Shown: positions 1 to 21,032 of the stretch, piece by piece
Layout: each line of letters opens with the position of its first letter
Position numbering within the stretch: position 1 is the first letter of the stretch
Origin: an uncultured Acidobacteriota bacterium
GTDB lineage: Bacteria; Acidobacteriota; Vicinamibacteria; Marinacidobacterales; DATDRI01
Direction of reading: 5' to 3'
DNA: 64,000 nt
Assembly: GCA_963697355.1 (NCBI GenBank)
Contig: CAVONV010000023.1
Location: forward strand, 1,362,400-1,426,399
Program-made: the position numbers and the translations under genes
Notes under the pieces: generated by a model
What the model was told of the DNA's origin: nothing
Databases searched by the model: none
What the model saw: the letters and a program-made list of their open reading frames with translations, nothing else

Positions 1-2610
1 CGTCGGTGCCGCATCCGACTCGCTGGGCATCGTTAACACGAAGCGTTGTCCGTCGCGAGAGATGTCGTAACCACGACCGTAGGGTGGGGCGATGTCGTAA
101 GTACCTTCAAAGAGCACCCGAGGCCTCCCCGGAAGGAGCTCGGGCTGGGTCACGATGTCCACGGCCATCATTCGCTCATCGTCACGATAGAAGAGCTCCC
201 CCCCTTTCGGATTCCACGCCGGCTCTCTTCCCCCGTCGGTCGAAATCCGCCATTTGCCGCCCGGTCCGGGAAACGGCGTCACATAGATTTCGTCGCTACC
301 GGATTCGTTCGAGACGTAGGCAAGCCAGCGGCCGTTCGGTGAAAGCGCCGGCTGAAACTCGTTGGAAGGTGTTTTGAGGAATGGCTCGGGGTTGCGTTCA
401 CCTTCCATGGGAAGCACCCAGATGTCCCACCCCGACTCGGGATCGAGGCTCTGGTGAAAGACGAGGTTCTTGCTGTCGGGAGACCACCCAAAAGGCTGCT
501 GAGCATATTCACTTGTGGTGAGGCGCTCGGCGGAACCGCTGCCATCGGCGGCTTTCCAGAACAAGTTCACGGCACCGCCCGAGCGCATGGAAGGAAAGGC
601 CAACCGTTTCCCGTCGGGACTCCAGACCGGCCAGAAATTCTGACCTTCCGAGGTCAGTGGTGTCAGTATGCCGCGTTCCATCTCATACACCCAGACCTGA
701 GAATCGCCTCCTGCTATCCACATGGCGATTCGATCGCCCTCGGGGGACAACTTTGGTCCTTGGAAGTAACGTTGCTGCAGGTCGGTCATGGGCTGAGCAC
801 TACCGTTGCGATCCACCCAAACGAGTGTCCTGCCGATCCACTGCTGCGCGCCGCTCGGCACATAAATGAGGGTGCCGTTTCTGGAGAGACTGAAATGAGC
901 GTCGCCACATCTGGTGATAGCCACCTCCTCGACGACCGGGACGGGGGCGCCGGTGAGTTCGAGCCGTTCGAGATCAAAAGGCACGGCCAGGATGGAACCC
1001 GCTTCGGCGTAAAGCAAGTGGCCGCTGAGGGCATAACGAGTGTGACTACCGCCCTCGATGAGAGTTTTTCGCTCGCCCGTTTCGAGAGACATCACCTCCA
1101 CTCGAAGCGTGCTACAAGAGCCGTCCAGGGTGCTGAAAACAGCTTCTTTCCCGCCAGGAAGAAGTTCAGGATAGGCAATATCCCACTCACCCTCTTCTAA
1201 ACGTGGGCTGATCAAAGGTTCGGGCGTCCCTCCTATCGATGAGATTCGCCAGATGCCCATACCGGATGTTTCAGCGAAAGTGTGAAAAAGAACGGTGTCG
1301 TCAGATCCCCAGCTTGCCCCTTTCATACTTTCTGGAGCGTTGCAAAGAGGCAGCGGTGGCCCGCCGGTGAGCGAAATCTTCTTGAGCTTTCCATCGGCAT
1401 GAAAGCCGAGCCATTGACTATCCGGGGAGAAGAAAGGGAACTCCCCGTTCTCCGTGCCTTCAATCGGCCGCGCTTTGAGCTCTCCTATTTCTTGCAGGTA
1501 GAGCTGAGTCTTTCCGTCCTGTTGAGCGGGGTACACCATGCGCGTTCCATTCGGCGCAATGGCAATGGAGGAGGTTTTGGCACCGGATAGTAGATACGGG
1601 ATATCTAAAGCAAACCGCATGGGAGCTCCTGAGCCAGGTTCGGTTCTTTGAATCGAAAGCCAGATGGCGAGTCCGCTTGCGAGCGCCACGATCAACCACG
1701 GTACTACGGCCCGCCACCTGCGAGCTTCCGAAACGGGCGTTGCCCCTGCCGATAGCGGTGGTTCCGTCATCGCTTCTTCGATCTCGATGCGCGCATCCGC
1801 TATGTCGTGGAGACGGCCTTGGACATCCTTGCGGAGACATCGGCGCAGCAAACTGCGGACTATCGCGGGTGTAATATGGGGCATCATCTCCCAGACCGGC
1901 TCACGCTCCACGATCTTCGCAATCGTGTCTGTGACTGTCTCGCCCAAGAAAGCTGCCTTGCCTGTCAGAGCCTCATACAGACAACACCCGAAAGCCCAGA
2001 TATCCGTCCGCTTGTCCACCGCCTTCCCACGTGCCTGCTCAGGACTCATGTAAGGAGCGGTGCCAAGAAGAACTCCGGTTTCCGTGTCATCTCTAGTGAT
2101 GGTTGGGGACTCCGACAACCCTTGGGAAGTCGTCTCTCCCGCCATTGCCTTGGCAAGACCAAAATCCAGAACCTTAACCTTCCCCTCGGGTGTCACCTTG
2201 ATATTGGCCGGTTTGAGGTCCCGATGAATCACGCCTTTCTCATGTGCCGCTTCGAGACCTTCAGCGATTTGCTTGAAGAGCGGAAGGGCTTCATCGATAG
2301 GTATGGGACCGCGCTTTATTCGCTCCGCCAGCGTTTCTCCCGGTACGTACTCCAGCGCCAGGAAGTGCACGCCATCGGACTCCTCGAGCTCGTGAATGGC
2401 GGCAATATTCGGGTGGTTCAGTGATGCGAGGAGGCGGGCTTCACGCTCGAATCGGGCTAGGCGCTCCCTGTTCTCAGAGAAAGTTGCGGGTAGGACTTTG
2501 ACTGCGACTTCACGATCCAGCTTGGTGTCCCTGGCAAGATACACCTCTCCCATTCCACCTTCGCCGATCTTCTCTAGGACCTTGTAGTGGGAGAGCGTCC
2601 GGCCAATCAT
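1..2610 (-). CDS. Hanks-type Ser/Thr protein kinase (type B) with TM segment and C-terminal TolB/WD40-like beta-propeller; 3' end runs off the window
   Basis: Absent from the ORF track because there is no stop inside the window. Manual reverse-complement translation from ATG at 2608-2610 gives [26 protein letters not shown]...VAVKVLP...HRDLKPANI...DFGLAK...SPEQ, then a hydrophobic segment and SPDG-type propeller repeats down to position 1 (...ISRDGQRFVLTMPSESDAAPT). A GGAGG SD lies 6 nt upstream. Confidence 0.8.
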   Translation of the reverse strand, partial: MIGRTLSHYKVLEKIGEGGMGEVYLARDTKLDREVAVKVLPATFSENRERLARFEREARLLASLNHPNIAAIHELEESDGVHFLALEYVPGETLAERIKRGPIPIDEALPLFKQIAEGLEAAHEKGVIHRDLKPANIKVTPEGKVKVLDFGLAKAMAGETTSQGLSESPTITRDDTETGVLLGTAPYMSPEQARGKAVDKRTDIWAFGCCLYEALTGKAAFLGETVTDTIAKIVEREPVWEMMPHITPAIVRSLLRRCLRKDVQGRLHDIADARIEIEEAMTEPPLSAGATPVSEARRWRAVVPWLIVALASGLAIWLSIQRTEPGSGAPMRFALDIPYLLSGAKTSSIAIAPNGTRMVYPAQQDGKTQLYLQEIGELKARPIEGTENGEFPFFSPDSQWLGFHADGKLKKISLTGGPPLPLCNAPESMKGASWGSDDTVLFHTFAETSGMGIWRISSIGGTPEPLISPRLEEGEWDIAYPELLPGGKEAVFSTLDGSCSTLRVEVMSLETGERKTLIEGGSHTRYALSGHLLYAEAGSILAVPFDLERLELTGAPVPVVEEVAITRCGDAHFSLSRNGTLIYVPSGAQQWIGRTLVWVDRNGSAQPMTDLQQRYFQGPKLSPEGDRIAMWIAGGDSQVWVYEMERGILTPLTSEGQNFWPVWSPDGKRLAFPSMRSGGAVNLFWKAADGSGSAERLTTSEYAQQPFGWSPDSKNLVFHQSLDPESGWDIWVLPMEGERNPEPFLKTPSNEFQPALSPNGRWLAYVSNESGSDEIYVTPFPGPGGKWRISTDGGREPAWNPKGGELFYRDDERMMAVDIVTQPELLPGRPRVLFEGTYDIAPPYGRGYDISRDGQRFVLTMPSESDAAPT

Positions 2611-2632
2611 GGAGGACCTCCACGTTGGGGTG

Positions 2633-2662
2633 AGGATAGTTCTTTGCCCCGTGAAAAGTCAA
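2633..2662 (-). promoter_or_regulatory. Conserved kinase promoter cassette (-35 TTGACT, 18-nt spacer, -10 TATCCT on the coding strand), copy 1
   Basis: Reverse complement reads TTGACTtttcacggggcaaagaacTATCCTcaccccaaCGTGGAGGTCCTCCATG. The same architecture recurs upstream of four more kinase starts. Confidence 0.5.
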
Positions 2663-2708
2663 AGGTGAGTGCAGGTAGGGAGATTTTGGGATTGTTTCTC
2701 TTTGGGTT

Positions 2709-4538
2709 TCATCCTCCATCGGATTCGACAAACTCCAACCACCGGAACCAGATCGGATGATGCTCCTTGTACCATCGCAGCACCTCGAGCAAGATGGTTT
2801 GGTGCTCCGGCGAGATAACTTCATCCGGTATCCGGTCGAAATGCACGCGGAGATGTTCCTTCGTGTGCTCCAAGGCTTCGGCACAAAGTGTTTGCAGCTC
2901 GTTGCGGATGCGGCCCGAGTCCGAGATCTTGACGGCACGGCCGCGGTAGTCTTCGCCGTAGAAGAACCGGATGAGAAGCGGATTGAAAACCAGCCGGCTC
3001 TCTTCCATGCGTTCCATGAGACGCAATGTGAATGTGATCCGTTTATCGCCAAGCGGCGTGGCGAACCTCACCGTGGTGCGATAGATATTCGGTGAGATCT
3101 CGAGGACTCCGGGTGTGCCCGAATAAGGGTCTGGCTGCATGTAGCCGCAAAGGGCGAGAACGTCCCAACGTTTCTCCGGAAAGAAGTCGTCCACCACCAT
3201 GAGCGGATGATCCAGTGGCAGACCAGCATCTCGTGCTTCGCAGATCATCTTTCGATAATCTTCGACCGTCGTATCGTCCGGCGTCTTATCGAAGAGCCTA
3301 CCCAGCTCACTCGCAAACCCGGCATGCTCGGAATCGAGGTGCATCACGCGCCTCTCCTGCTCGTAGCTGAGCTCGAAACGAGATGTGAAGACGGCCAGCG
3401 AAGCCGTTAGTCCGAGCATGTGCGTCAGGCTCGCCGCCTGCATCGCTTCCGCCGAGGCAGCATATCCATCGATCAAGAAAACGTGGTCTTGATCTTGACT
3501 ATCGTGCCAGGAGCCGACGAGATAGGTCGGAGCGTAAGTTCCAGATTCGGTGAAGGCCGTCATACCGGTAGGCAGTCTCCAGCCATCCTCCACGACATGT
3601 GCGCCTGCGCTTCGCCACTCCTCCCATAGCTTTCCAATCCGCGGAGCCCGACTCTTGCCTTGTAGAGTCCAAACATGAACATTTTCCCGACGGATACCGG
3701 GATAGGCAGCCTCGATCGCCTCCATCACCGTCGATCGTGGCGTTCGGTAGTCGAGAAGCACAGAAAGGTCCGCGGCAAGGTCCACCACTTTTTTCGGTAG
3801 AAACAATGTTCCCATGTAGCCTTCATAGGGACGGTAGATCCGAAGTGGTTGCTCGAACAGGTGAAGAATGGTCATCGGACCGGTCGAGCACTTTTTAGCG
3901 AACCGCGATGTGTTCTCCAGCGTATCCACTGCAGCGCCCCACACGGTGATTCCCGCCTTCTTGATCTCCTCGTAGAACTGGTCCCATTCGTAATCCCGAT
4001 CGTTCAGCATTCGGGCCACCCGCTCCTCGAGCCATTGCGCTACGAGCGGGCGAGCATAGATCCGGCCGAAGCCGAGCTGGGGATTCGAGCCCATCTCCGG
4101 AGTCTCACCTGCTTTGGGCATCAGTCCCTCGCCGAGGCTCACCATGATGGCGTGGTTCTCCGGCAGTTGACGCGAGGCATACCACAGACTCTCGGCTAGG
4201 ACGTATGCGGAGATGGCGTCCGCATCCTTCTTGACCTGGTTGAGCTCGGCCTTGTCTTTACCTTCACCCTCGCCGAACCGACCGAAGAGCTGGGTTCCAA
4301 ATGCCGTGGCTCCGACGGCCATGGCCATCAGTCGCTCCATTTGAGGGTTCATGAAGGAGATTTGGTTGGTGAGGCCTGGTTTCGGAACGCCCCTCAACCA
4401 CTCGATCTCGACGTCCTCGAGCCAAAGATGAAGGCGAGAGAGGATGGGGCGGGTGTCGAAGGCCCACTGGGCAATCCGGTCGCGTCCTTCGGGGTCTTTG
4501 GCGTCTGCGACCTTCGTTTCGTCGTTTTTGGACTTCAT
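2709..4538 (-). CDS. Conserved hypothetical protein (609 aa), no family recognised
   Basis: Long uninterrupted ORF with genome-typical codon usage, sitting between a kinase gene and a kinase remnant. No convincing match to FBPase (GlpX or class 3) or any other family I can name. Confidence 0.6.
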   Translation of the reverse strand: MKSKNDETKVADAKDPEGRDRIAQWAFDTRPILSRLHLWLEDVEIEWLRGVPKPGLTNQISFMNPQMERLMAMAVGATAFGTQLFGRFGEGEGKDKAELNQVKKDADAISAYVLAESLWYASRQLPENHAIMVSLGEGLMPKAGETPEMGSNPQLGFGRIYARPLVAQWLEERVARMLNDRDYEWDQFYEEIKKAGITVWGAAVDTLENTSRFAKKCSTGPMTILHLFEQPLRIYRPYEGYMGTLFLPKKVVDLAADLSVLLDYRTPRSTVMEAIEAAYPGIRRENVHVWTLQGKSRAPRIGKLWEEWRSAGAHVVEDGWRLPTGMTAFTESGTYAPTYLVGSWHDSQDQDHVFLIDGYAASAEAMQAASLTHMLGLTASLAVFTSRFELSYEQERRVMHLDSEHAGFASELGRLFDKTPDDTTVEDYRKMICEARDAGLPLDHPLMVVDDFFPEKRWDVLALCGYMQPDPYSGTPGVLEISPNIYRTTVRFATPLGDKRITFTLRLMERMEESRLVFNPLLIRFFYGEDYRGRAVKISDSGRIRNELQTLCAEALEHTKEHLRVHFDRIPDEVISPEHQTILLEVLRWYKEHHPIWFRWLEFVESDGG

Positions 4539-4589
4539 TATATGGCTGACCTCGAGAATTCCTCTTACAAGTAAGCGCCTCGAACAAAC

Positions 4590-4800
4590 GGTACCCGAAC
4601 GCCCAGAGATCGGTTCGTCCCGAGCATGACGTCCGATTCCGTAGCGTCTCTAGTCATTATCGGGGACTCTGACAAACCCTGGGAAAACGTTTCTCCTAAT
4701 ATCGCCTTCTCTCGCCCACGGTCCAACGCCTTGACATTACCTTCGGGTGTGACCTTGATGCAGGCCTGAGGTCTCGGTGAACGACGCCTTTCTCATGCGA
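4590..4800 (-). pseudogene. Internal fragment of a type-B Ser/Thr kinase (catalytic-loop/activation-segment region only)
   Basis: Nucleotide similarity to positions 2040-2260 of the kinase at 1..2610 (e.g. tctcggtgaacgacgcctttctcatg vs cccgatgaatcacgcctttctcatg). No start, no N-lobe, no intact frame. Confidence 0.45.
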
Positions 4801-4840
4801 ACCAACTACCGATTGGTTGCTCACCCTCAACTAGGTCACC

Positions 4841-5296
4841 TCACTCCTTAGCATATGCGCCGAAATCCCACTCGATGGGATGAAGGAAACTCTGGAACTC
4901 GATGGATCGGCCTTCGGGATCTTGGGCATAGAAATGATAGATCCGATACTTCGTATTTTCCTTCGGCGCCGAACGCGCGCTCGCTTCCAGCTCGTCGTAA
5001 AGCTCATCCACATCTTCCTTCTTCTCATAAAAAAACGTGATAAGTGTGTCGAGGTCGGCCTCTTGACTTTGGCAGAACCCAACGAGGAGATTCCCATACC
5101 TCAGGATCGCGCAGGTACCTTGGTCGAGCCACAGATCACACCCTATGGGTTGGATGTAGAAGTCTTTCAACTCCTCGAGCATCGTCGTCTTGAAGAAGAC
5201 CAGCCCACTGCCCTTTGCCTCGACCTCCCGACGATTCTCGGCATGCAGAATGCCAGATAGACAAACGAGTGAGACGAGAACCCACACCGGTTTCAT
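4841..5296 (-). CDS. Secreted VOC/glyoxalase-like protein (151 aa) with N-terminal signal peptide
   Basis: MKPVWVLVSLVCLSGILHA signal. The C-terminal half (YRIYHFYAQDPEGRSIEFQ) resembles the glyoxalase/bleomycin-resistance fold. Confidence 0.5.
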   Translation of the reverse strand: MKPVWVLVSLVCLSGILHAENRREVEAKGSGLVFFKTTMLEELKDFYIQPIGCDLWLDQGTCAILRYGNLLVGFCQSQEADLDTLITFFYEKKEDVDELYDELEASARSAPKENTKYRIYHFYAQDPEGRSIEFQSFLHPIEWDFGAYAKE

Positions 5297-5326
5297 ATCA
5301 ACCTCCGAGCCTTTTATTTGGGCGGA

Positions 5327-5566
5327 TCACATACTCCAGGATCTTGAAACACGTATAAATCGAATCAGCATGAGGAACGCCTCTTTTGCTTCCGTTTCCG
5401 CATCCGGACGGATGTCTCCCTGGAGATAGACGACCGGCTTTCCAGAAGCCTTGGCCTCTTCAGGAGAGGTCACGCGTGGGTTGGCCAGGACGATGGCGGA
5501 TCCCACGTTGCGCAAAGTGGTGATGAACATATGGATCACGTGGACATTCTCGCTGTTCGGCTTCAT
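5327..5566 (-). CDS. Small hypothetical protein (79 aa), possibly a gene fragment
   Basis: ORF only; no motif recognised. Confidence 0.25.
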   Translation of the reverse strand: MKPNSENVHVIHMFITTLRNVGSAIVLANPRVTSPEEAKASGKPVVYLQGDIRPDAETEAKEAFLMLIRFIRVSRSWSM

Positions 5567-5774
5567 AAGATCTCCGCCACCTGACTACTGGGTCAGGCCA
5601 GCGAGGCCCCAATGTGCCGTGGCTCGTCAGCTTCAACCCGCTAAGCGTTCGACTTCGCTCTTGGTCTGAATCCCGGTAGAAACATCGGAGTCCGCCTTCG
5701 ATATTCGATGTTTCGGCTGTCCGTTCACTTCGACGATCGTCTGGCGACGCTGGCATTCAAACGCTAAAGCGGTT

Positions 5775-6791
5775 TCATTGCCTAATCCAGGCCGGTCCTC
5801 CTAGGGCCGACATCGCCCGCAATTCGGCAGGTGGATTCAATTGAAGCCTGATGGTCTTGTCCAACGACGCTGCAAGCCATTTCTTGGTATCTGTGGGTTC
5901 CCCGAGTAAGGCCAGCATCTGCTCGTCCAGTCCCTCGTCGGCCGGCGCGTCAATATAAAAGGCTCTTAGTGTTTTGGAAAAGGTTTCCATGCGTCCACGG
6001 TTGGAGGCCAGATGGATGTTTCTACCACAGGCTGCGAATGGTTGTTCTGGATGGAGATTTCCGCCGATCGCATCCAGAACGACTTGTAGGTTCTCGACGA
6101 ATCTCGAATGACAGGGCCACAGCATGTCGATGGCAAGGCCCAAAGAAAGCTCGGCATCATCCCCGTTCTCGGTATCGTGAATAAAGGTTCGAACGGTTGT
6201 TCGCCAGAACGCTTCATGTTCTTTGTAGCGTACCGGACATTCGTCACGATAGGCGACGTCGTATTCACCTCCACTCAAGAGTAACCAGGCGTAGTGAGCC
6301 GATGGGTCATCCACCGGTCGCTGCCAATGGATCACACTACGGATTTTGTCAACGACCCTTTGGAGCTGCCACTCTTTCAGCGGCGAGCGTTCACCAAGGC
6401 GTTCGAGGATTTGAAAGGCTGGTACATGACCGATGGACCAGTCGATTTGAGAGCTTGGACATCCAGCACACCATGCCGATAGAGCGGCGCACGTGTTCTG
6501 CCAAACCGTTTCGACAGGGTGTCGCTCCCCGGGCCGACGGGTGCCCAGCCCCTTTCGGGTCTCTCCGGAGCCGATCGCTTCGAGAATATTCACGACCCAT
6601 TGATCAGCCTTGTGATGGCACAATTCGAGACCAGAAATGAGCTCACGAATTTTCGACAGGTTTGGATCGATGGGTGCGAAAGCGTCTTCCATGCGATCAA
6701 TCTGCAGGATTTCGGAATCTACGCTAAGGGCACAATTACGCCACCATGTTCTCAACGATGTCGACATCGGATCTGCTCCAAAAAAAAGCAA
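5775..6791 (-). CDS. Hypothetical protein (338 aa), no family recognised
   Basis: Long ORF with typical codon usage, located between the VOC-like gene and a kinase stub. Confidence 0.5.
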
Positions 6792-7081
6792 TCTCGAAGA
6801 ACTTGTTGAGCGCCATGCCCCCTGTCCGCCGTAGCCTTGGCGAAGGCGGATGTCGTGGATGGCAATGATGTTGGGTGGTTGAGCGCGGATGCAGACCTGG
6901 CCTCCTGCTCAAAGCGCCGCAGTCGTTCGGGACCGGTGGCAAGCTCCTCCCGAAGCACCTTGATGGTCACATCCCGTCCCCGCTTGTGGTCCTTCGCCCG
7001 GTAGACTTCTCTTATCCCACCCGAGCCGAGAAGGGAAGTGATGTCGTAATGGCCGAGTCGGGTGCCGGGTTCGAGGCTCAT
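6752..7081 (-). pseudogene. N-terminal stub of a type-B Ser/Thr kinase (subdomains I-IV, then out-of-frame sequence)
   Basis: [29 protein letters not shown]...VTIKVL...[15 protein letters not shown], then a non-kinase tail. It starts immediately after the stop of the deleted type-A gene at 7092. Confidence 0.6.
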
Positions 7082-7091: not shown

Positions 7092-7555
7092 TCACATCAT
7101 GCCGAGCTTCCTCTTTGCTTCTTCCACTCGCTCGCGGTCCATGTCGCCGTCTTTCCAGTACTCGTGGAAGCGGCGGTAGTACTCGCGGGCTCTGCCCATA
7201 TCGCCCCGGTTCTCGTGGATCGTGCCCAGGAAGTAGAAGCTGCGGACATAGGGGAGGGGCGACCAAAAGCGCTCAGTGGTGCTTTCGATGATACGCTCAA
7301 ACCATATGACTGGGACAGGTCCGTCATCAATATGTCCGTGATGCCGGTGCGGAGCCAATCGAGCTCCGGGTCTCCCTTTGTAGTCTCGAAGAGAGCACGG
7401 CGATGGACGGTTTTGCCACACGACCTTTCTGGAGGGAGAACTTTGAGAGCTACTTCGCGGTCAAGCTTTAGTTTAACGGCACGGTAGACGATGCCCATGC
7501 CGCCTCGGCTGATCTCAGAGAGGATTTTGTAATGCGAGAGAGTTCGACCCATCAC
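7092..7555 (-). pseudogene. Internally deleted derivative of a type-A kinase-TPR gene (N-terminus, one middle block and C-terminus retained)
   Basis: Frame 1: [41 protein letters not shown], then DPELDWLRTGITDILMTDLSQS (matches [22 protein letters not shown] of the 10462..13441 gene). Frame 2 ends [57 protein letters not shown], matching the C-terminus of the 989-aa paralog. Confidence 0.65.
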
Positions 7556-7577: not shown

Positions 7578-7607
7578 AGAATAGTGGCTTTCCGATGGGA
7601 AAGTCAA
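7578..7607 (-). promoter_or_regulatory. Conserved kinase promoter cassette, copy 2 (TTGACT, 18-nt spacer, TATTCT)
   Basis: Reverse complement reads TTGACTttcccatcggaaagccacTATTCTcactccagCGTGGAGGTCCTCCGTGATGGGTCG. Confidence 0.45.
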
Positions 7608-9059: not shown

Positions 9060-9593
9060 TGGTGCCATACTCTGCCAGATACTTGATTCGGTGGCTTCAT
9101 CGTGCGCGACCTCTGAGATTGAGATGTTGGCAGGCTCAAGGTCTCGATGCTTGACGCCCTTCTCATGAGCTGCTTCGAGACCTTCCGCGATTTGCTTGAA
9201 GAGTGCAAGAGCCTCATCAGTAGGAATGCTTGGCTCGCCGGAGCCTTCCGCCTCCGCCGAGGCTTCGGCGGACGAGCGGCGAAGGCGGCGGCCTCGCTTG
9301 ATGCGCTCTGCCAGAGTCTCTCCCGGCACGAACTCCAGTGCCAAGGAATACACACCATTGGATTCCTCGAGTTCGTGGGTGGCGGCGATGTTGGGATGAT
9401 TGAATGAAGCGAGCAGTGTAGCTTCACGCTCGAATCGGGCAAGACGTTCTTTGTTCTCGGAGAAAGTTGCAGGCAGGACCTTAACAGCGACTTCGCGATC
9501 CAGCTTGGTGTCTTTGGCGAGATACACCTCTCCCATGCCACCTTCGCCGATCTTCTCGAGGACCTTGTAGTGGGAGAGTGTCCGGCCAATCAT
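9060..9593 (-). pseudogene. Truncated type-B Ser/Thr kinase (N-lobe plus catalytic loop only); catalytic-loop Lys replaced by Glu
   Basis: [41 protein letters not shown]...NHPNIAA...HRDLEPANISIS, then the kinase sequence stops at ~9065 where the aminotransferase gene begins. It also carries an RRLRRSSAEASAEAEGSGEPS insertion. Confidence 0.7.
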
Positions 9594-9614: not shown

Positions 9615-9644
9615 AGGATATGACCTTTCGGAACGGAAAGTCAA
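9615..9644 (-). promoter_or_regulatory. Conserved kinase promoter cassette, copy 3
   Basis: Reverse complement reads TTGACTttccgttccgaaaggtcaTATCCTcacccaaCGTGGAGGTCCTCCATGATTGG. Confidence 0.5.
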
Positions 9645-10328: not shown

Positions 10329-10387
10329 CTGACTCCTTTCGACACAACACGGTTATGCCCTTCAAGTCTCGTGTCCTGGGGCCGGTT

Positions 10388-10465
10388 GGCGAGATAAATC
10401 TCTCCCTTTCCACCTTCGCCGATCTTCTCTAGGACCTTGTAGTGGGAGAGTGTCCGGCCAATCAT
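10388..10465 (-). pseudogene. 26-codon N-terminal stub of a type-B kinase fused to unrelated sequence
   Basis: ATGATTGGCCGG... encodes [26 protein letters not shown], then non-kinase sequence. Its ATG overlaps the TGA of the upstream type-A gene (ATGA). Confidence 0.6.
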
Positions 10466-13441
10466 AACTCTAGCTTCCTTCCTGCTTCTTCCACTCGCTC
10501 GCGATCCATGTCGCCGTCTTTCCAGTACTCGTAGAAGCGACGGTAGTACTCGCGGGCTTTTTCCATCTCGCCGCGGTTCTCGTGGATCTTGCCCAGGAAG
10601 TAGAAGCTGCGGACGTAAGGGATGGGCCACGGGATGCGTTCATTCGTGCTTTCGGTGACGCGCTGGAACCAGTGCGCTGCATTATCTTCATCTCCGCGAT
10701 TCCAGGTAGGCCTTGGCGAGAGAGAACCAGATGGGGACGTGTTGAGGGATGCGGAGGTCGTGATGAACGCGAAGAAAGCCTCGTGGGTGAAGCATTGATT
10801 GAGCAATTTCAAGTTCGTCAACAGCCTTAGTGATGTCGCCACGGATCATGGCTAGCTCCCCCAGAAGACGGTGATAGCGTCTTTTCTCTTTTTCGGTGGG
10901 AAGCGATGCTGTCCTTTGTCGGAGCTCTTGCAGGGTTTTCTCCGTCTCCTCCCATTGACCCAGCTTCGCGTACGCGAGTGAAACGAGAAAAAGGCCTTCC
11001 CACTCCGGAAAATTACCTTTCCCTTCTCGTTGTGCTTCCCGGGCTTGTTCCAGCGCACGAGCTTCATTGCCTTGCTCGAGAAGAACGTCCGCCGCCATAA
11101 TCCGGGCCTCAGCAGTGGTGAGTTGTGGATCTTCGTAAGCATTCACCGCCTGATCGATTTGAGTTAAAGCCTCGTGGGACCGACCGTGGTAAAGGTGAAG
11201 TCTGGCGAGGCAGCGCGATCCCGACCACTTTAGTCTTGGGTCGTTCGAATCGACTGCCTGTTTCGCCGCGCTCTCGGCCAGTTCCCACTTCTCGCGCAGA
11301 ACGAAAACGTGCCATCGGCCAAGCTGAACCTGAGGGTCAGGGAGAATGGACTCTGATGTCTGAAAGGCTTCCAGTGCCTGGTCGAGTTTTCCCCAGCGGA
11401 TGAAATGCTGGCCGAGTCTCTGATAGCCGGCGGCACCGTCTGGGTGTTGTGCCAAGTAGCCTTGAAGGATCTCGTATCCCTTTTCGAATTGCCCTATGCA
11501 AGAGTAGCAAATCGCGAGGTTATCGTATGCGCCAACGAATGCGAATTTTCGCCGTATGGCTTCCTCATAGTGGTCGATAGCATCGTCGTAGCGTTCAAAG
11601 TGGCGATAACGTAAAGCTAAGTTGTTGCGCACAACATTGTCGTCCGGATAAATCTCCAACGATTCTTCCAAAGTCTTAAAGGCGCGCTCGTATGTTTCTT
11701 CCTTCAATGCATAGTAGCTGCCCTCGACATAATAGCGATCGCGTAATGGCAGACGATCTGCGTCCTCGACAGCTTGCCGGCGATATTCTTCGCGTAACTT
11801 GTATTGGCCTATGTTGCCGTACATAGAGGAGAGATTGATGCGGGCCCGGGCAAAGTGAGGGTCCACTTCCAGAGCTTTCTCGAAAAGAGGGATGGCCTCC
11901 CTGAACTGCCCACGAGAATCTAGTTTCACCCCCTCCACATAGTACCGGTAGGCCTCGAGAGAGGAGGTGGTCACATCCTGTATGTATCTATCAAAATCGG
12001 CTTCCGCAGCCTCAGGGATCTCGAAATCTGTCTTGATGCGTCGGGTCAGATCATCCACCATTGAGAAGATGCTCGATTCACCGATCCCTTCGGCTTTCTC
12101 CGTGGTTAGAATCTCCCCGCTGGTCACGTCCTGGACGCGGATGTTGATCCGAACATTGTCTCCGGCTTTCATGAAGCTTCCGAGAATCACCGTATCGGTG
12201 TTTGCTTCTCGAGCCACTTCCTGTACGACCTTGAGCGAAGTGATCCGTTCGTCCAGCCGGTTCATGTCGCTTAGGATTTGATAAAGACGATCCGTACTAA
12301 GCACGGTCAGGTTCGGCGACTGGGAGAGGTCCGTCACCAACATGTCGGTCAAACCGGTACGGAGCCAGTCGAGTTTCGGATCTCCAGAGGCGTTTTCAAA
12401 ATAGAGCACGGCAATCGAGGGTTTAGAGCCAGGAGAAGGCACTGGCTCCAGAGGTGAAGTTTGGGGTCGCGAAACGAGCCATCCAATGATCAACACAGCT
12501 ATGACCCCAGCCACAGCGGCGAGGAGACCGAACTTACGACGGGGCCCGTAGACGACCGGAGAGACAGAGCCTGATTCAAGGTGGCGTCGCGCGGACCGAA
12601 GATCGATCACAGTATCGTGGATAGTCTGATATCGCTCCCCTGGCTCTTTGGATAGGCACTTGTCGACTATGTGTTGGAGTTCGAAGCGTGTGTCGTCCGG
12701 TACGTTCGATCCCAAATCGGACAGTCTTGGAGCCGCATCGTTCAAGATAGCATGGAGCGTATCCAACCCACTCTTGCCCTCAAAAGGAAGCCGACCGTTC
12801 ACCATCTCGTGCAGCACAATCCCGAAGCTGAAGATGTCGCTCCTATGATCGACCTTTTGTCCTCGCGCCTGTTCAGGCGACATGTAGGAAACGGTCCCCA
12901 TAACCTTGCCCGGATCCGTTTCGCCGTTCCGCGTGAGGGTCTCGATGTCGCTCCCTTCCCCGGCTAAAGGCTCTATGAGTTTGGCTAGGCCAAAATCGAT
13001 GATCTTGGTATGACCGTCCTCGGTCACCATGACGTTGGCCGGTTTCAGATCCCGATGGACGATGCCTTCATCATGAGCTTTGGCAAGGCCTTCAGCGATG
13101 TCAGTGGAGATTTCGAGAGCACGGCGAAGAGGCACGGGGCCTTTGGCAATCGTGTCACGGAGTTGCTCTCCCCGGATCAGCTCCATCGCAATGAACGTGA
13201 CGCCGTCGGTCTCGTCTATCTCGTAAACCACCCCGATGTGAGGATGCTCGAGCTTCGCCGCAGCCTTGGCTTCCTGGACGAAGCGTCGCTTGCGTTCGGA
13301 ATCGGCAACGAGATCGGGCGGAAGAACTTTGAGGGCAACCTCGCGGTCGAGCTTCAGATCGAGGGCACGGTAAACGATACCCATGCCGCCTCGACTGATC
13401 TCAGAGAGAATTTTGTAATGCGAGAGGGTGCGCCCGATCAT
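10462..13441 (-). CDS. Hanks-type Ser/Thr kinase (type A) with TM segment and TPR repeats; apparent single-nt frameshift near 10695
   Basis: The 917-aa ORF (10688..13441) begins [42 protein letters not shown] and carries [15 protein letters not shown] and TPR repeats. The conserved C-terminus ([55 protein letters not shown]) continues in another frame in ORF 10462..10842. The shift occurs at CTGGAATCGCGGAGATGAAG. Confidence 0.75.
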
Positions 13442-13463: not shown

Positions 13464-13493
13464 AGGATATGGCTTTTCGGAGAGCAAAGTCAA
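13464..13493 (-). promoter_or_regulatory. Conserved kinase promoter cassette, copy 4
   Basis: Reverse complement reads TTGACTttgctctccgaaaagccaTATCCTtccatccaagcGGAGGTCCCCAATGATCGG. Confidence 0.5.
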
Positions 13494-13646: not shown

Positions 13647-16470
13647 TTATTTGGGTTCTTGCGCCTCCTCAAGGCGAGCGCGGTACTCGGCGGCCTGTTC
13701 GGGCTTTCCCCAGGCTTCGTAGAGCGTTATGACATAGTCGATGACTACTCGAGTGCGGTCGTTTCCCTTGCCCAACGAGGTCTCGAGCGCCGAGAGCGTG
13801 TCGAGGAGCAGTCGCTCGGCTTGCTCGAATCTGTCCATCCGAGCAAGACAGTGACCATAGTGACCTCGGGAGATCAATAGAATGGGGCTATTCTCGGGCA
13901 GAGCCTTGCCAGCCGTATCATCGAATTCCTTGAAGTTTGTTTCCGCTTCGGCGTACTTGCCCTGCTCACAAAGTGCCTGGGCCAGCCCGCCGAGCGCATA
14001 GAGGGTGTCCGGGTGCTCGCGGCCCAAGACGCGCCGTTCCACCTCCAGGGTGTCACGTAGCAATTCTTCAGCCGCGCCATACTTTTCAATGCGGTTGAGC
14101 ATTGCGGCAAGAATACTTGCGGTGAATAGTGTATTGGGGTGCTCCGCACCTAGGACACGGCGCCGGATCTCCCAGAGCTTCGACAAGTAAGCTTTCCGAG
14201 TCGGCATACTGTTCCTGGCGCGCATACAACACAGCCAAGTTGGTCATGGACGTCAATGTCTTCGAGTGCTCTACTCCCAGCACGCGACGCTGGATCTTCA
14301 GCGCCTCATTGTATAGGTTCCCCGCGTCGGCGTACTGACCTTGGTCACTATACAACCCGGCGAGGTTACTCATCGTAGTCAAGGTGTGCGGGTGTTCCTC
14401 CCCGAGTAGGCGGCGGCAGATCTCGAGCGCCGTCACGTACAACGACTCCGCCTCTTGGTAGCGTCCCAACATTGTGTAGAGGGAAGCCAGATTGCTCATT
14501 GAGGGGAGCGTGTCGGGATGCTCGTCCCCCAGAACACGGCGATGGATCTCCACGGTCTTCGCCAAGAGCGCCTCTGCCTCGTCGTAGCGGCCCAACTCCT
14601 TGTACAACGAGCCAAGGTTGTTCATGTTCGTTAGTGTGCTGTCGTGCTCCTCACCCATGGCCTCGCGGCGAAGTTCCAAGGATTCGACGAAGAGCGCTTC
14701 CGCCTCCTGCAATCGGCCTTGTGCAACATAGAGAGCGGCGAGATTGCCCATGGCGTTCAGCGTTTGCGGGTCGTCCTCGCCCAGCGCGCGACGGCTAAGA
14801 TCCAATGTTTTTACGATCAACGGCTCGGCCTCGTCGAGACGCCCCTGCTTCCGGTACAGTATCGCCAGGTCTTGAGTGGCCATCAGCCTGTCCGGATGCT
14901 CTTCTGGGTGGAGCGCTCTTTGGATCTCGAGCTGCCTGCGGGCGTGCTCCTCTGCCTCTTTGTAGAGCCCGAGTGCGTGGTACGTCTCACCGATGGTGCC
15001 ACGCAAACGGGCTTCGATGAGTGGTTGGCCACCGAATTCTTCGCCGATCGAGCCTGCTGCCTGATCGAGCACCTGACGCACCGTGACGTCTTTGCCCAGC
15101 TCAGCAGGGTCCGCCGCCGCCAGCATGCTGGCCAAAAACTCCGTCACCGCTTCGGACTCATCGCGGGCCCTTTCGGCGGCGTCGCGCTCCTGACTCGCGT
15201 GGAAAAAACCCACCGCGGCGGCCGTTAAGCCGACGACGAGGGCAGCAAGGACCAGACCCGCAGCGGTGACGATGACTCGGTTGCGTCTGACGAACTTGCC
15301 CAAGGTGTAGGTCATGCTGGGGGGCCGGGCACGGACTGGCTGGTTACTCAGGTAACGCTGAACGTCCGTTGTCAACTCGTTGGCACTTCCGTACCGACGA
15401 GTTCGATCCTTCTCGAGTGCCTTCATCGTGACCCAGTCGAGGTCGCCTTGGAGTATCTTCTCCAGAGCTCTGACCTCGATTTGACGATTGGAGGCCGACG
15501 TCGTGGAAGCTTCGCCGAGACTACCCACCCTGGTGCTGGGACGCGGAGGTTCCTCTTCTCGAAGCTTTCTTTGAATCTCGACCAGGCCCGCCTTCCGGAG
15601 TTCCCGAGGATCGAACGGCTGGGCGCCCACGAGTAGCTCGTAGAGAACGACACCGAGGGAGTAAACGTCTGTGCGCGTGTCGATATCGAGGTTGGTCATC
15701 TCCGCCTGTTCCGGGCTCATGTACTCCGGAGTTCCGATGAGCTGCCCCAGCTCGGTGTCGACGGTGCGCTCCGTAAGCCTCCGCGACGTAGCCTTCGCCA
15801 CCCCGAAGTCGATGACCTTCGGGACAGGCCGGTTGTCCTGGATTGCGACGAGCACATTCGATGGCTTGAGGTCTCGATGGATGATCCCTTTCTGGTGCGC
15901 GTGCTGGACACCCTCGGCGACTTGGATGAACAGCTCCAGACGCTCCTTGATGGTCAAGCGGTGCTTGTCACAGTACTCAGTGATCGGAATCCCCTGGACG
16001 TACTCCATCGCAAAGTACGGACGCCCCTCTTCTGTTGATCCTGCATCGTAGACACTGGCAATGTTGGGATGATTCATCAGTGCCAGAGCCTGCCGTTCAG
16101 ACTCGAACCTTGCAATGACCGCCCTGGTGTCCATCCCCCACTTGATTAGCTTGAGGGCCACTCGGCGCTGAACCGGCTTTACTTGCTCAGCCTCATACAC
16201 CACACCCATACCCCCGTGGCCGATTTCACCGAGGACGCGGTAGGGGCCGATTTGACGATCGTCCACATCAACATCGTTATGGATTGTGATGGTCACGGCA
16301 TCTACGGGAGGTGGCTCTTCGAGAAAGCTGTCTGCTTCATCATGAGAAGCAAGAAGCGATTCGACTTCCTGCCGCACGGGAAGCTCAAGTTCACCTAGGA
16401 AGAGTTCCCGTTGTTCAGCGGGAATACCGAGAGCTAATTCGAAAAGCCTCTTAACACGGTCGGTAACCAT
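13647..16470 (-). CDS. Ser/Thr kinase with ECF-sigma-like N-terminal region, TM segment and TPR_10/12-type repeats; apparent +1 G frameshift near 14200
   Basis: The 794-aa ORF has the kinase motifs (GHGGMGVVYEA, HRDLKPSNV, DFGVAK), a TM helix and RRxLGxEHPDTL TPR repeats. The repeats continue in ORF 13647..14225 in another frame. At GAAGCTCTGGGAGATCC one extra G in a G-run breaks EAL-EIRRRVLGAEHPNTL. Confidence 0.75.
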
Positions 16471-16818: not shown

Positions 16819-17577
16819 CTACTCGAGCCATTTCTCGACCAAGGCTCTACGCTTGTCCGTAATTCCGTAGAGGGCCGTCACTTCAATTTCGGAATCACTC
16901 GGTCCGTACTTCATCTGGTATTTGGCATGTTGCAGGAGCAGATCGTAGTCTCGGTGGCCGATGCCGTACACGGCTGTCGGCTCGGAGACTCGGCCTGCAG
17001 AACGTCGATACCGCTTCATCACTTCCTTAGTGTAGTCTTGCTCGGCGAGATAACTGTTCTGACAACGACATACCAAGTGAACGTTATCAACGCTATGGTC
17101 GCCACCACGACCGTAGGGTTGGTGATGGTGGAACTCGAGCCCCTCTCGTTCGCTACATCGCCGGCCCTCTTCGGTAACGAAAGTGCACTGATGATGGTCA
17201 CGTTCGCAGACGGCTCGTTTGACCGCAGCCGGGATATAACGTGACGACGGTGATGGATTCGTCTCTTCGAGTCTTTTTCTTGGAGCCTTCGTCTTGGCAA
17301 AGCGCTTCGCTTCGAGCCTCTCGAGCTTCTCGGTGACGGCCTCCTCGATGATCGTTGCTAGATCCCCATCCGGGACAGACGAGCGCATGAGATCGCGAAG
17401 TCGATCGAGCTTGTCGCGAAGCTCGGCGCCCGCTGTGAATTCAATCTTGTACCTTGCCGGCGATAGAGGCACCACCACCGCAGGACGGGCTCGAGCAGGA
17501 GCCGGCAGACTGTTACCTATGTACCCGGTCTGTTTTGTTGCCGATGTAGCCGGTTGCACCATGGGTTTCTTTTCCAA
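16819..17577 (-). CDS. HNH endonuclease-domain protein (252 aa)
   Basis: Cys/His-rich motif CERDHHQCTFV...CSEREGLEFHHHQPYGRGGDHSVDNVHLVCRCQN. Confidence 0.7.
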   Translation of the reverse strand: MEKKPMVQPATSATKQTGYIGNSLPAPARARPAVVVPLSPARYKIEFTAGAELRDKLDRLRDLMRSSVPDGDLATIIEEAVTEKLERLEAKRFAKTKAPRKRLEETNPSPSSRYIPAAVKRAVCERDHHQCTFVTEEGRRCSEREGLEFHHHQPYGRGGDHSVDNVHLVCRCQNSYLAEQDYTKEVMKRYRRSAGRVSEPTAVYGIGHRDYDLLLQHAKYQMKYGPSDSEIEVTALYGITDKRRALVEKWLE

Positions 17578-17700: not shown

Positions 17701-17862
17701 GCCCCTAACCAACACGCTGTTCCTTGTTCTCGGCCATCTCGCGGGGCAGGACTTTCAGTGCCATTTTGCGACTGAGTTTCGTGTCATCGGCGACGTAGAC
17801 TTCCATTCCACCTTCGCCGATCTTCTCGAAGACCTTGTAGTGGGAGAGAGTCCGGTCAATCA
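17701..17862 (-). pseudogene. 53-codon N-terminal stub of a type-B kinase directly after the type-A gene
   Basis: [52 protein letters not shown]. Its ATG overlaps the TGA of the 989-aa gene (GTCATGATTGACCGG). Confidence 0.6.
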
Positions 17863-20829
17863 TGACGCTAGCTTCTTTCTCGCTTCATCCACCCGCTCGC
17901 GATCCATATCGCCGTCTTTCCAGTACTCGTAGAAGCGGCGGTAGTACTCACGGGCTTTTTCCATCTCGTCGCGGTTCTCGTGGATCTTGCCCAGGAAGTA
18001 GAAGCTGCGGACGTAGGGGATGGGCCACCAAAGGCGCTCGGTGGTGCTTTCGGTTATGCGCTGTAGCCACTCTGTGGCTTCTTCGTCATCGCCTGCCGCT
18101 AGGTTGGCCTTCGCGAGGGAGAACCAGATGGGAACGTGCCTGGGGAACACTCCTCCAAGCTGGGACGGGATGCCCCGTTCCGGAAGGAAAGAAATTGCCT
18201 GATGTAGCTCGTCTATCGCCAGCGGAATATTCCCCTGAAGTAGAGCAAGCTCACCGGCAAGATGGTGGTGGAGCCTCAACCCGATGACTGTGCTTGGTGA
18301 CTGAGATGTATGCAGTAGTCGTTCTGCGGTTTTTTCCGCATCAACCATGCGTCCGCTTATTCCCTGGACGAGTGCAACGTAAAACAGGCCCTCCCACTCC
18401 GCGACGTGTCCTTCGCGCTCTTCCGAGTCCTTTTTGGCCTGCTCCAGGGCTTGCGCCACATCGCCTTTCTCGAGAAGGACGTGAGCGGCGAAGCTGTGGA
18501 CACCCAGATCCTCAGCTTTGGGTTTGTAGTCTGATTGATTGGCTTTCTCGATGTGCCCGACCGCTTCTCGAGATTGACCGTGATAAAGTCGTGTGACAGC
18601 TCGTTGGAGAAGACCTGACCATCTCGGGTACGGTTCATTGGAGTCCAATATCCTTCCGGTTGCCGCATCGGCCAACTCCCAGTTCCCACGAAGCATGGAT
18701 ACCTGCCATCGGCCAACGCTGGCGTATATATATTCGGGCCATAGCGCTTCCGCTTTTTGAAAGGCTTGGAGTGCGTCGTCGAGCTTCCCCCAAGTGATCA
18801 GGTGGTGTCCCATATCGTAATGATTGCCGGCAATATCAGGTCTTCGGCGGAGCAGTTCTTGGAGAGCCCGGTAGGCCCTCTCGGGCCTCCCCTGAGTGTC
18901 GTAGCACTCGGCGAGGATCCAAAAAGAATTGTCGTTCATTTGTCCTATCTCGATAGCGTCCTCGATGAGCTCGATGGCCTCGTCGTAACGTTCCAGCAGC
19001 CAATAGCCTAAGGCGAGGTTTTGCCGTGCTGATTTGTGGTCCGGATAATGCCGTAGCGCTTCTCTGTAAGCGTCTATCGACCGGTCCATGGTTGGCCAGG
19101 GGAAGTAGAAATTACCCTCCACGTAGTAGCGCTCGCGAGGGGGAAGCCGGTCTGCATGCTCTAGCGCTAGCCGTGCATATTTGTGGAATAGCTCCGTGTT
19201 GCCCAGGTTGCTGTGGATCGCCCAGAGCTTGGACAAGGCCATGGCGAAGCCAGGGTCCACCTCGATGGCCTTTTCAAAAAGAGCAACGGCCTCCTTTCCC
19301 TTCTGGCTATTCTGTAGCTTCCTACCCTCCACGTAGTATCGGAAGGCCTCGATCGAATCCGTGGTCACGTTTGCTATGTTCATATCCCAGTAGATTGCAT
19401 CCGCTTGGCCCCCGAGGCTCGTGCTGACTCGCCGAGTGAGGTCGTTGACCATGGGAAAAATGCTCGAGTCTCCTTCGCCTTCCACTTTTTCTGTGGTTAG
19501 GATTTTGCCGCTTGAAGCATCCTGGACACGGACGTTGATGCGGATGCTGCTGCCCGACTTCATAAAACTGCCGAGAATTACAGTATTGGCGCCGATCTTG
19601 TCGGCAACCTCCTGGACGACCTCGAGTGATGTGATGCGCTGGTCCAGCCGGTTCATGTCCTCGAGGATCTGGTAGAGCCGATCGGTGCTGAAGACCTCCA
19701 GGTTGGGTGACTGCGAGAGGTCCGTGACCAGCATTTCGGCCAATCCAAGTCGCAACCAGTCGAGTGAGGGATCCCCGCTGATATTGTCGAAGAGCAATAT
19801 GGCAACCGATGGCCTGGTGGTTGGGGATGGAGTTAGTTCATCTTGGACGGGCGGTCGCAAGACAAGCAACGTGCCCACCAGTGTCAGTGCGGCGATTGCA
19901 CCCGTTGCTGTGTAAAGCAATGGTTTGCGACGGCCTGTTGCTACGGTAGTTGTGATAGGCCCAGATTCCAGACGCTTGCTTACATCGTGCAAGTCGATGA
20001 CCGCATCCTTGATTGTTTGGTAGCGTTTGTTCGGCTCCTTGTTGAGGCACTTTTCCAGCACATGCTGTAACTCGAATGCGGCTTGGTCGGAGACATCAGC
20101 TCCGAGAGACGGAAGCTGTGGGGTGGGTCCGCTCAGTATCGCGTTCAAAGTGTCAGCACCCGTCGGTCCACGGAAAGGCGCCTCGCCCGTGACCATCTCA
20201 TGAAGAACGATCCCAAAAGAGAAGACGTCGGTTCGGTGGTCGATGTTTTGCCCTCGGGCCTGCTCGGGTGACATGTACGAAACGGTTCCAAGGATCTTTC
20301 CGTCGGATGTTTCGTCACGCAGAGCGGTCGTTTCCTCTGTGTCGTCCGCGAACCGTGACTCCACTAATTTGGCGAGACCGAAGTCGATGATCTTCGCATG
20401 CCCCTCCTCGGTCACCATGATATTGGCGGGCTTGAGGTCGCGATGAGCGATTCCTTCATCATGAGCCTTGGCGAGGCCCTCTGCTACGTCAGTGGCGATT
20501 TCCAGTGCGCGACGAAGAGGCACAGGACCCCTGGCTATCGTGTCCCGGAGCTGCTCGCCACGGATCAACTCCATGGCAATGAATGAGACGCCGTCGGTCT
20601 CGTCTATCTCGTAAACCACCCCGATGTGAGGATGTTCGAGCTTCGCCGCCGCCTTGCCTTCCTGAACGAATCGACGCTTGCGCTCTGGGTCAGCAACGAG
20701 ATCAGGAGGTAGAACTTTGAGGGCAACCTCGCGGTCGAGCTTCACATCAACCGCACGGTAAACGATGCCCATGCCGCCTCGGCTGATCTCAGAGAGGATT
20801 TTGTAATGCGAGAGGGTTCGACCAATCAC
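17860..20829 (-). CDS. Hanks-type Ser/Thr kinase (type A, intact, 989 aa) with TM segment and TPR repeats
   Basis: GTG start. [61 protein letters not shown], then a TM helix, TPR repeats and the conserved C-terminal [47 protein letters not shown]. Confidence 0.9.
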
Positions 20830-20851
20830 GGAGGACCTCCACGCTGGGGTG

Positions 20852-20881
20852 AGGATAGTGGTTTTCGGATAGCGAAGTCAA
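20852..20881 (-). promoter_or_regulatory. Conserved kinase promoter cassette, copy 5
   Basis: Reverse complement reads TTGACTtcgctatccgaaaaccacTATCCTcaccccagCGTGGAGGTCCTCCGTGATTGG. Confidence 0.5.
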
Positions 20882-21032
20882 AAGGAGGTGAGAGTTGAGA
20901 GGAGCGGACTGAGACGGCAGATCCGTGGGTCCAGCGAAGACGGCTCTACACAAGAAACAGGTGAGCAGGCGGTGAGGTCATGCGATTCAGCTTCGTGTCA
21001 TCCGGGCAACGACAGGCTTGTGAGATGAGAAC

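Follow-up and report, generated by a model that had tools for sequence, protein, structure and literature searches.

Co-transcribed kinase pairs and the concerted evolution of tandem paralogues are familiar phenomena. In Mycobacterium tuberculosis, pknA and pknB are adjacent same-strand genes for Hanks-type kinases that are co-expressed in a conserved cell-division operon and have not been amplified. Under the birth-and-death model of Nei and Rooney, genes are duplicated, after which some copies are kept and others are pseudogenised or deleted, while silent-cassette loci such as pilE/pilS and vlsE combine partial promoterless copies near full-length paralogues with gene conversion. Here we compare with these systems a cluster of genes and gene relics for Hanks-type Ser/Thr kinases at one end of a 64,000-nucleotide (nt) stretch of an uncultured Acidobacteriota genome (the window, meaning this whole stretch). 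To judge from its sequence, the region is the remains of duplicated pairs of a TPR-kinase gene (type A) and a β-propeller-kinase gene (type B), and thus a clear and unsurprising case of gene-family turnover. We assign a probability of about 0.78 to the reading that it is an old, mostly decaying tandem cluster of paralogous membrane-spanning kinase genes shaped by deletion and gene conversion.

Lineage-specific and tandem duplications of eukaryotic-like kinases have been described in Myxobacteria and Planctomycetota, where adjacent duplicates indicate tandem duplication (PMC11032199, summarising Perez et al. 2008), and membrane kinases with periplasmic TPR or WD40 arrays are already established (PMC11032199). 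Like those expansions, the cluster holds many paralogous membrane kinases with a cytoplasmic Pkinase domain, a periplasmic TPR or β-propeller domain, and adjacent duplicates; unlike them, it consists mostly of dead copies, has alternating heterotypic pairs with overlapping stop and start codons, shows a conversion mosaic and belongs to an uncultured Acidobacteriota lineage. The likeness to pknA-pknB lies in two Hanks-type kinase genes being adjacent on one strand, and the difference in the window pair being lineage-restricted, duplicated and largely degraded. With the model of Nei and Rooney the cluster shares duplication and loss, as some copies have been pseudogenised or deleted; it differs in that the ends of A1 and A2 are homogenised, so that divergence was not independent, and in showing no sign of recent births. 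A mixed model of birth-and-death and gene conversion appears to apply. As at pilE/pilS and vlsE, partial promoterless copies occur together with signs of conversion, whereas the stubs consist of an invariant N-terminal kinase segment, several copies bear promoters and no dedicated recombination signals were seen. A silent-cassette variation system was rejected on the grounds that the stubs carry only the conserved segment and that five copies bear promoters.

Literature searches turned up nothing published on these kinase arrays of Acidobacteriota, and nothing on 'Marinacidobacterales'. What is new is the overlapping TPR-kinase/propeller-kinase pair with its relics, conversion mosaic and shared promoter cassette in an unstudied lineage, and the region reveals no new molecular mechanism. 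Its value is that of a well-resolved natural example of turnover in a bacterial Ser/Thr kinase family, in which heterotypic pairs, segmental duplication, neighbour-truncating deletion scars and conversion appear together, with conversion keeping promoters, catalytic N-termini and gene junctions alike and leaving the sensor domains to diverge. It also carries a warning for annotation, namely that short kinase "genes" following large kinases in Acidobacteriota metagenome-assembled genomes (MAGs) would be relics. Several signalling pseudogenes in the source genome point to an eroding sensory capacity.

The kinase cluster and its overlapping gene pairs

Kinase-related sequence is confined to positions 1–20829, exclusively on the minus strand, as found by tblastn of local kinase, TPR and propeller segments against the whole window; the same segments detected no kinase homology in the other 43 kb (21–64 kb). 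The kinase features are the following.

17860–20829, minus strand: A1, intact type-A kinase gene, a single open reading frame (ORF) of 989 amino acids (aa)
17705–17863, minus strand: s1, 52-codon ORF, N-terminal relic of a B-like kinase
13647–16470, minus strand: type-C kinase gene (Pkinase and TPR_12/TPR_10) with a +1 frameshift in the GGG run 14171–14173
10462–13441, minus strand: A2, type-A kinase gene with a +1 nt frameshift near 10694–10699
10313–10465, minus strand: s2, type-B in codons 1–26 (10386–10465), remainder unrelated
9100–9593, minus strand: B2, truncated type-B kinase gene
7092–7555, minus strand: A3, heavily deleted type-A relic
6752–7081, minus strand: D stub, 109-codon ORF with its ATG at 7081, 10 nt after the A3 stop (7094–7092)
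4546–4815, minus strand: internal B kinase fragment, residues ~117–224, with unrelated ORFs on both sides
1–2610, minus strand: B1, intact type-B kinase gene whose last 19 codons lie past the window edge
20852–20881, 13464–13493, 9615–9644, 7578–7607 and 2633–2662, minus strand: promoter-like sites of A1, A2, B2, A3 and B1, respectively

The cluster comprises two intact kinase genes (A1 and B1), two with a single frameshift (A2 and C) and six relics. An initial annotation had counted five kinase genes and at least five remnants on one strand within 21 kb; strand and extent agree with our data, and only A1 and B1 proved intact. An all-vs-all nucleotide comparison (self-blastn) showed that copies and stubs are homologous.

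The evidence for overlapping pairs comes from the type-A stops. Both ATGA overlaps reported there earlier are present, the ATG of s1 overlapping the TGA of A1 at 17863–17860 (GTCATGATTGACCGG) and that of s2 overlapping the TGA of A2 at 10465–10462 (TTATGATTGGCCGG), and the alignment of A1 with A2 continues unbroken through the junction into the stubs. Had the stubs failed to align to the 5' ends of full type-B genes, the proposed descent would have fallen; in self-blastn both align, s1 at 77–78% to B1 and B2 over 124–150 nt (E 1e-21 to 1e-24) and s2 at 93.7% to the 5' ends of both over 79–80 nt (E 1e-27). Stub s1 is 70% identical to B1 residues 1–50 at the protein level (tblastn) and has lost one residue of the Gly-rich loop through a 3-nt deletion. 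Its first 78 nt are 88% identical to B1, and the next 78 nt are nearest, at 76%, to the B'' subtype of locus L081 (an ENA contig of 18 kb; its B gene and B1 share 69% identity). Stub s2 is of the B1 subtype (94%), reads GGKG in place of an intact Gly-rich loop and loses all kinase similarity beyond codon 26. The B remnants at the ATGA junctions span 26–52 homologous codons, and in no A-stub pair of the window are both cistrons intact.

The claim that a type-B stub follows each of three type-A genes stands for s1 and s2, while the third stub belongs to another kinase type, D, composed of a kinase domain, a TolB-N-like domain and a short TPR; its start is the ATG at 7081 and not, as had been proposed, a GTG 4 nt downstream of the A3 stop. 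About 70 codons of this stub match type D, with a 1-nt frameshift near 6870. It is 77.7% identical in nucleotides to the starts of both D genes of L081 (6471–6600 and 15771–15900) and 56% identical in protein to residues 1–71 of the L081 D kinase, gives a weak Pkinase match and has no nucleotide similarity to B. No remnant of a B 3' end can be claimed at the A3/D junction, where homology to L081 begins 2 nt before the D ATG.

The other relics retain varying portions of their parents. B2 is 84.5% identical to B1 over 330 nt (self-blastn), carries an insertion of ~20 aa, reads HRDLEPAN instead of HRDLKPAN and lacks DFG; in translation its kinase similarity ends near the catalytic loop at ~9100, and tblastn stretches a weaker alignment to 8970. 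The internal B fragment matches B1 at 4637–4797 (72.7% over 165 nt; 70% aa over 50 residues). A3 keeps three patches in two reading frames, namely the N-terminal 57 aa, a mid-domain motif and the C-terminal 68 aa, and its nucleotide identity to A1 is 88.5% and 86% (self-blastn).

The intact copies have the layout of receptors. A1 consists of a cytoplasmic Pkinase domain (160.6 bits; the gathering cut-off of Pfam Pkinase, PF00069, is 31.7 bits), one hydrophobic segment, a TolB-N/CsgG-like domain and a TPR domain, with matches to many TPR families and a weak one to CsgG. B1 has a Pkinase domain (174.3 bits), one hydrophobic segment and a PD40/TolB-like β-propeller (PD40, 91.5 bits), and its full product in the source genome has 889 aa (P0121). 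In translation, A1, A2 and B1 all have the Gly-rich loop, the VAxK lysine, HRDLKPxN, DFG and SPE. Since a single hydrophobic stretch follows the kinase domain in both A1 and B1, each product is predicted to cross the membrane once as a receptor, with its kinase in the cytoplasm and its sensor, which would bind ligands or proteins, facing outward (periplasmic). Since both are still demonstrably intact, they are presumed to be the working sensors of the cluster. The type-A stops at 17860 and 10462 had both been taken to end intact genes, which is true of A1. A2 has one extra base relative to A1 in alignment and is split into the ORFs 10688–13441 (917 aa, identical to P0021) and 10462–10842; with that base removed, it reads through with no further stop. 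The type-C gene (Pkinase, 146.1 bits) is likewise split, into the ORFs 14086–16470 and 13647–14225, both with TPR_12. A2 and C are probably young pseudogenes.

The exact products of A1 (P0001), A2 (P0021) and B1 (P0121) share one source contig in the protein collection. The nearest GTDB genomes are those of 'Candidatus Marinacidobacterales' and other Acidobacteriota/Vicinamibacteria MAGs, with at most 54% protein identity to A1. An anti-phage defence reading was set aside: the matches of PADLOC PD-T4-6/mad6 are generic ones confined to the ~280-aa kinase domains of A1, B1 and C, and the neighbouring ORFs gave no PADLOC hits.

Intact overlapping A-B pairs were sought in relatives, and one was found on a 6,749-bp contig of JGI metagenome 3300042731, where an A gene (1086–3998, P0008) and a B gene (3995–6655, P0126) overlap by 4 nt. 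The C-terminus of P0008 ends in RERVEEARKKLES, and the A/B junction would be expected to read TCATGATTGG. The two proteins match the A C-terminus and the B N-terminus, and P0126 is 90% identical to B1 in the kinase domain and 45% in the propeller. This intact pair supports the interpretation of s1 and s2 as relics of a real but lineage-restricted overlapping A-B pair. The idea of an ancestral, translationally coupled A-B module is strengthened by this homologous pair and by the unbroken A1/A2 junction alignment; such a module is not general, and the third stub is of type D.

What relatives commonly have in place of A→B is a tight tandem of the A→A, B→D or propeller→propeller type. The A→A type is frequent (L001, with 3-nt spacers, L016, L055, L051, L054 and L038), and in other Acidobacteriota contigs, from soil and sediment, tandem kinase genes often overlap by 4 nt (L084, L119 and L133). 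In L081, an A-like gene and a toxin-antitoxin pair precede a promoter with B and then D; after these come the degenerate B'', an HNH gene of 430 aa, a B' disrupted by frameshifts and an in-frame stop, and lastly a second D. B→D occurs there twice, with a 1-nt spacer in the intact pair (B stop 6471, D start 6473). A 26.9-kb (26,941-bp) contig from the same JGI sample as the A-B pair carries B, kinase and PD40 fragments, and then B, TPR-kinase, B and TPR-kinase with tight junctions. The matches listed in a metagenome scan with the B alignment are soil and sediment relatives at 35–50% identity, and the close JGI contig is not among them. Tightly packed tandem kinase arrays, both homo- and heterotypic, are on the evidence of these contigs a general habit of Acidobacteriota, with A→B as one variant. 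The toxin-antitoxin-like pair of L081 (DUF4258/DUF2283, 2996–3542) lies between the A-like kinase and the B promoter as a further small selfish module inside a kinase array.

Probable gene conversion and the shared leader

The two long type-A copies are unevenly diverged. In self-blastn, the 5' ends of A1 and A2 are 79% identical over 701 nt (E 1e-171), and the 3' ends with the junction 85% over 340 nt. Third-position identity, counted at codons whose amino acid is unchanged between A1 and A2, was as follows.

Codons 1–120: 70%
Codons 121–905: 42%
Kinase C-lobe: 40%
TolB-N-like domain, well conserved: 39%
Codons 906–989: 80%

Both ends differ from the middle (Fisher p: 5' end, 5e-7; 3' end, 5e-8). 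The 5' high-identity tract stops in the middle of the kinase domain, at no domain border, which argues for a recombination breakpoint over domain-specific constraint, and the 3' tract runs past the ATGA junction into the stubs. A triple tandem in L001 shows a comparable pattern, with 65–81% at the ends vs 48–55% in the middle, and divergence between B1 and the L081 B gene, an inter-genome comparison, is far more even. From this pattern we infer gene conversion between paralogues across the junctions. The 5' ends of B-type genes are 94–97% identical within a genome vs 86–90% between genomes, in a 78-nt sample that is too short for significance. The suggestion of ongoing recombination and turnover is supported by the mosaic of synonymous divergence and by the relic-rich arrays of relatives; no sign of a recent birth was seen, as no long stretch of the cluster exceeds ~88% identity.

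Homogenisation also concerns the leaders. A1, A2, A3, B1 and B2 have in common a 52-nt promoter/leader (TTGACT-18-TATCCT followed by a GGAGG Shine-Dalgarno sequence), the promoter-like site of A1 being exactly TTGACT-18-TATCCT. In an alignment of the five regions, identity is 63–87% across A and B types, and similarity halts exactly at the −35 hexamer. Type-B genes, full or partial, had been credited with promoters of their own, and such sites do precede B1 and B2, as they also precede the three type-A copies. A simple consensus scan found a promoter-like site at all five free-standing copies and none ahead of the stubs. Co-transcription of the pair can be inferred from the overlap together with the absence of a predicted internal promoter. 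The promoter-like sites are separated from the start codons by 22–24 nt. Four of the five leaders have the Shine-Dalgarno sequence within GGAGGTCCTCC; this segment could form a short hairpin masking the ribosome-binding site immediately ahead of the start codon, and A2 lacks the complementary half. No Rfam family or tRNA was found in the window, so the leader is not a known RNA element.

Origin of the stubs

In the reading we prefer, the building block would have been a promoter-led, tightly packed kinase operon in which a TPR-sensor gene A was followed by a β-propeller gene B whose ATG overlapped the A stop. Such units would have been duplicated at least twice, and deletions would then have removed most of the downstream partners plus parts of neighbouring genes, leaving the N-terminal stubs s1, s2 and D, a gutted A3, B2 fused to an aminotransferase gene, and the internal B fragment. 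Conversion would keep the promoter and the first ~120 codons, as well as the last ~85 codons and the junction, alike among copies while the sensor-encoding middle diverges, and the decay would be part of a wider erosion that has also degraded further signalling genes in the vicinity. The stubs are best accounted for by deletion, since the HNH endonuclease gene by s1 and the aminotransferase gene by B2 are truncated too: a single deletion that took the 3' part of a kinase gene together with the 5' part of its neighbour would explain the arrangement at both HNH/s1 and aminotransferase/B2.

Several observations weigh against this scenario. A tight A→B pair occurs at none of the 79 genomic loci with A homologues, and of the four closest A homologues examined, three (P0003, P0006 and P0007) are solo genes, which makes the module lineage-restricted; the JGI pair itself was read from gene coordinates and protein sequences, not from DNA. 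Stubs s1 and s2 differ in B subtype after codon 26, which a single simple amplification does not fit. This difference, together with the low synonymous divergence at the junction, suggests that gene conversion may have overwritten one ATGA junction with the other, in which case the two would not both be survivors of separate amplifications. The origin of the A3→D junction is a further difficulty, a lost B being hinted at there solely by the 5-nt 'ATGAT'. The raised synonymous identity at the gene ends could in principle reflect selection on mRNA ends instead of conversion. Finally, the evidence for the junctions and for the single-base frameshifts of A2 and C comes from the deposited assembly.

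That last point leads to the view that stubs, ATGA junctions and frameshifts all stem from indel errors and from repeats that were wrongly joined or collapsed in a MAG, a view we find barely credible. The source is a MAG-type contig of 1.59 Mb whose repeats are 79–94% identical over up to 700 nt, one frameshift lies within a GGG run, and frameshifts also seem to affect at least three genes beyond the cluster. The copies are, however, too diverged to collapse (long stretches do not exceed ~88%), the flanks of each junction are unique, and independent assemblies (L081, JGI contigs, L048 and L079) contain comparable stubs and broken kinases. Moreover, the long housekeeping ORFs in 21–64 kb are uninterrupted, with ~30 kb of them free of frameshifts, while one histidine kinase gene has several, unlike random indel error; this contrast argues for frameshifts that are real and gene-specific, and disruptions clustered in particular genes fit real pseudogenes better than random error. 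A scan for frameshifts based on GC content at third codon positions was too noisy for use alone.

It also seems unlikely that the stubs arose by partial duplication, in which segments running from an A promoter a short way into B would have been copied elsewhere, so that the stubs were never full-length in their present places. The similarity between copies does start sharply at the −35 box and end 80–150 nt into B, as the boundary of a duplicated segment would, and tblastn found no B propeller fragments near the stubs. But the HNH gene beside s1 is truncated and the 5' part that it lacks was not found anywhere in the window, which one deletion across both genes fits better; the stubs end at different positions and in different B subtypes, for which partial duplication needs two donors; and an intact A-B pair exists elsewhere. 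Partial duplication is the less economical account when set beside deletion.

A functional role for the arrangement appears highly improbable in the form of a recombination cassette, in which the conserved ends would serve as homology arms for swapping sensor domains, the HNH protein might stimulate the exchange, and the stubs would be by-products or landing pads. Conserved ends around a highly diverged sensor middle would suit such a device, as would a promoter/leader common to both kinase types and HNH homologues that directly neighbour kinase genes in L050, L062/L065, L069, L081 and the window. The stubs, however, hold only the conserved segment and have no diversity to donate, five promoter-bearing copies leave no single expression site, the window HNH gene is truncated and a copy of its family in L165 stands in an unrelated context, and ordinary homologous recombination between tandem paralogues explains the conversion signal equally well. 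A related proposal, which we consider quite doubtful, is that TPR-sensor and propeller-sensor kinases form an obligate co-translated receptor pair whose arrays are reshuffled via the shared ends, with HNH breaks as a possible trigger and the stubs as semi-programmed scars of sensor swapping.

Bystander genes and wider erosion

The genes interspersed with the kinases are listed below; the region has no candidate gene on the plus strand.

16819–17577, minus strand: HNH endonuclease gene, 5'-truncated, 252-aa ORF
Between s2 and B2, minus strand: 113-aa ORF
7756–9045, minus strand: aminotransferase gene (Pfam Aminotran_1_2), abutting B2
5775–6791, minus strand: 338-aa ORF
4841–5296, minus strand: 151-aa ORF
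2709–4538, minus strand: 609-aa ORF, an uncharacterised bystander lying between the B fragment and B1

Read along the minus strand, the order is A1, s1, HNH, C, A2, s2, the 113-aa ORF, B2, aminotransferase, A3 and the D stub, followed by the 338-aa ORF, the 151-aa ORF, the internal B fragment, the 609-aa ORF and B1. The description of unrelated cargo between the kinases is accurate for the aminotransferase gene and the 609-aa and 338-aa ORFs, and the HNH gene is present in 5'-truncated form; the VOC label given to the 151-aa ORF has no Pfam or PDB sequence support.

The HNH ORF corresponds to the C-terminal ~190 aa of homologues of ~380–430 aa and is 80% identical in protein to residues 221–411 of the 430-aa L081 protein, and the N-terminal ~220 aa are absent from the entire window. 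The Pfam HNH score of the window copy is 19.6 bits vs a cut-off of 21.4, those of L081 and L069 being 21.8 and 23.6 bits. For an N-terminal DUF222 domain, as in REP13E12-like HNH endonucleases, there was only a sub-threshold match in L062 (16.8 vs 24.4 bits), and an assignment to IscB was rejected at about 23–26 bits vs a cut-off of 175. The family of ~380–430 aa has more than 3,300 relatives, many on contigs that barely exceed the gene. In every kinase-centred locus that holds an HNH gene, it adjoins a Ser/Thr kinase gene at 15–160 nt; besides the window copy, these are L081 11740–13032, L069 12490–13557, L062 8819–9880, L065 9262–9885 and L050 13015–14070. A rough neighbour-slot estimate (~10% per locus) gives p ~1e-4 to 1e-5 for 4–5 independent cases of such adjacency. 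One HNH copy (L165) has no kinase nearby, and the source genome also has a full-length copy (P0245). No multi-copy HNH within one genome was seen in the seven P0286 contigs, which represent one locus in different assemblies, with no kinase there.

The aminotransferase matches PRK08912 (E 9e-181), with protein residues 1–365 aligned to profile positions 19–383, so that the first ~18 NCBIfam positions are missing. For the 609-aa ORF, searches of Pfam, NCBIfam, PADLOC and PDB sequences gave no match; its uncharacterised family is small, with 300 cluster representatives at E≤1e-3 among 1.84 billion, about ten of them full-length (580–670 aa). The 151-aa and 338-aa ORFs have no family matches in Pfam, NCBIfam or PADLOC. 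The 151-aa product has a signal-peptide-like N-terminus, and an 82%-identical homologue is encoded at L164 11561–12013, ~900 nt downstream of a B-type kinase gene, which makes a second occurrence close to a propeller kinase.

Outside the kinase cluster, a degraded two-component system occupies 40075–42460 (minus strand), which indicates that erosion is not specific to Ser/Thr kinases. Its histidine kinase gene (~40.8–42.4 kb) is spread over at least three frames, in pieces corresponding to the sensor, the transmembrane segment with the H-box SHEIRTPL, the remaining HisKA and the HATPase_c domain, and the response regulator starts at receiver-profile position 20, the first ~19 positions being missing. 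At 37668–39902 (minus strand), a DUF5916/CBM9-like gene of outer-membrane type is seemingly frameshifted near 38090; its last 138 aa, which are β-barrel-like, lie in another frame (37673–38089), and the long ORF ends in an Arg-rich out-of-frame stretch.

A segmental duplication surrounds a PIN/Phd-YefM toxin-antitoxin pair at 36158–37662. The 3' end of a HhH-GPD glycosylase gene is found twice (36158–36307 and 37046–37195, 87%), as is the antitoxin gene (36743–36975 and 37430–37662, 79%), whose second copy is without a toxin. A 69-nt imperfect palindrome (49751–49819, 84% self-complementary) lies between the divergent genes 48246–49721 (minus strand) and 49913–50425 (plus strand).

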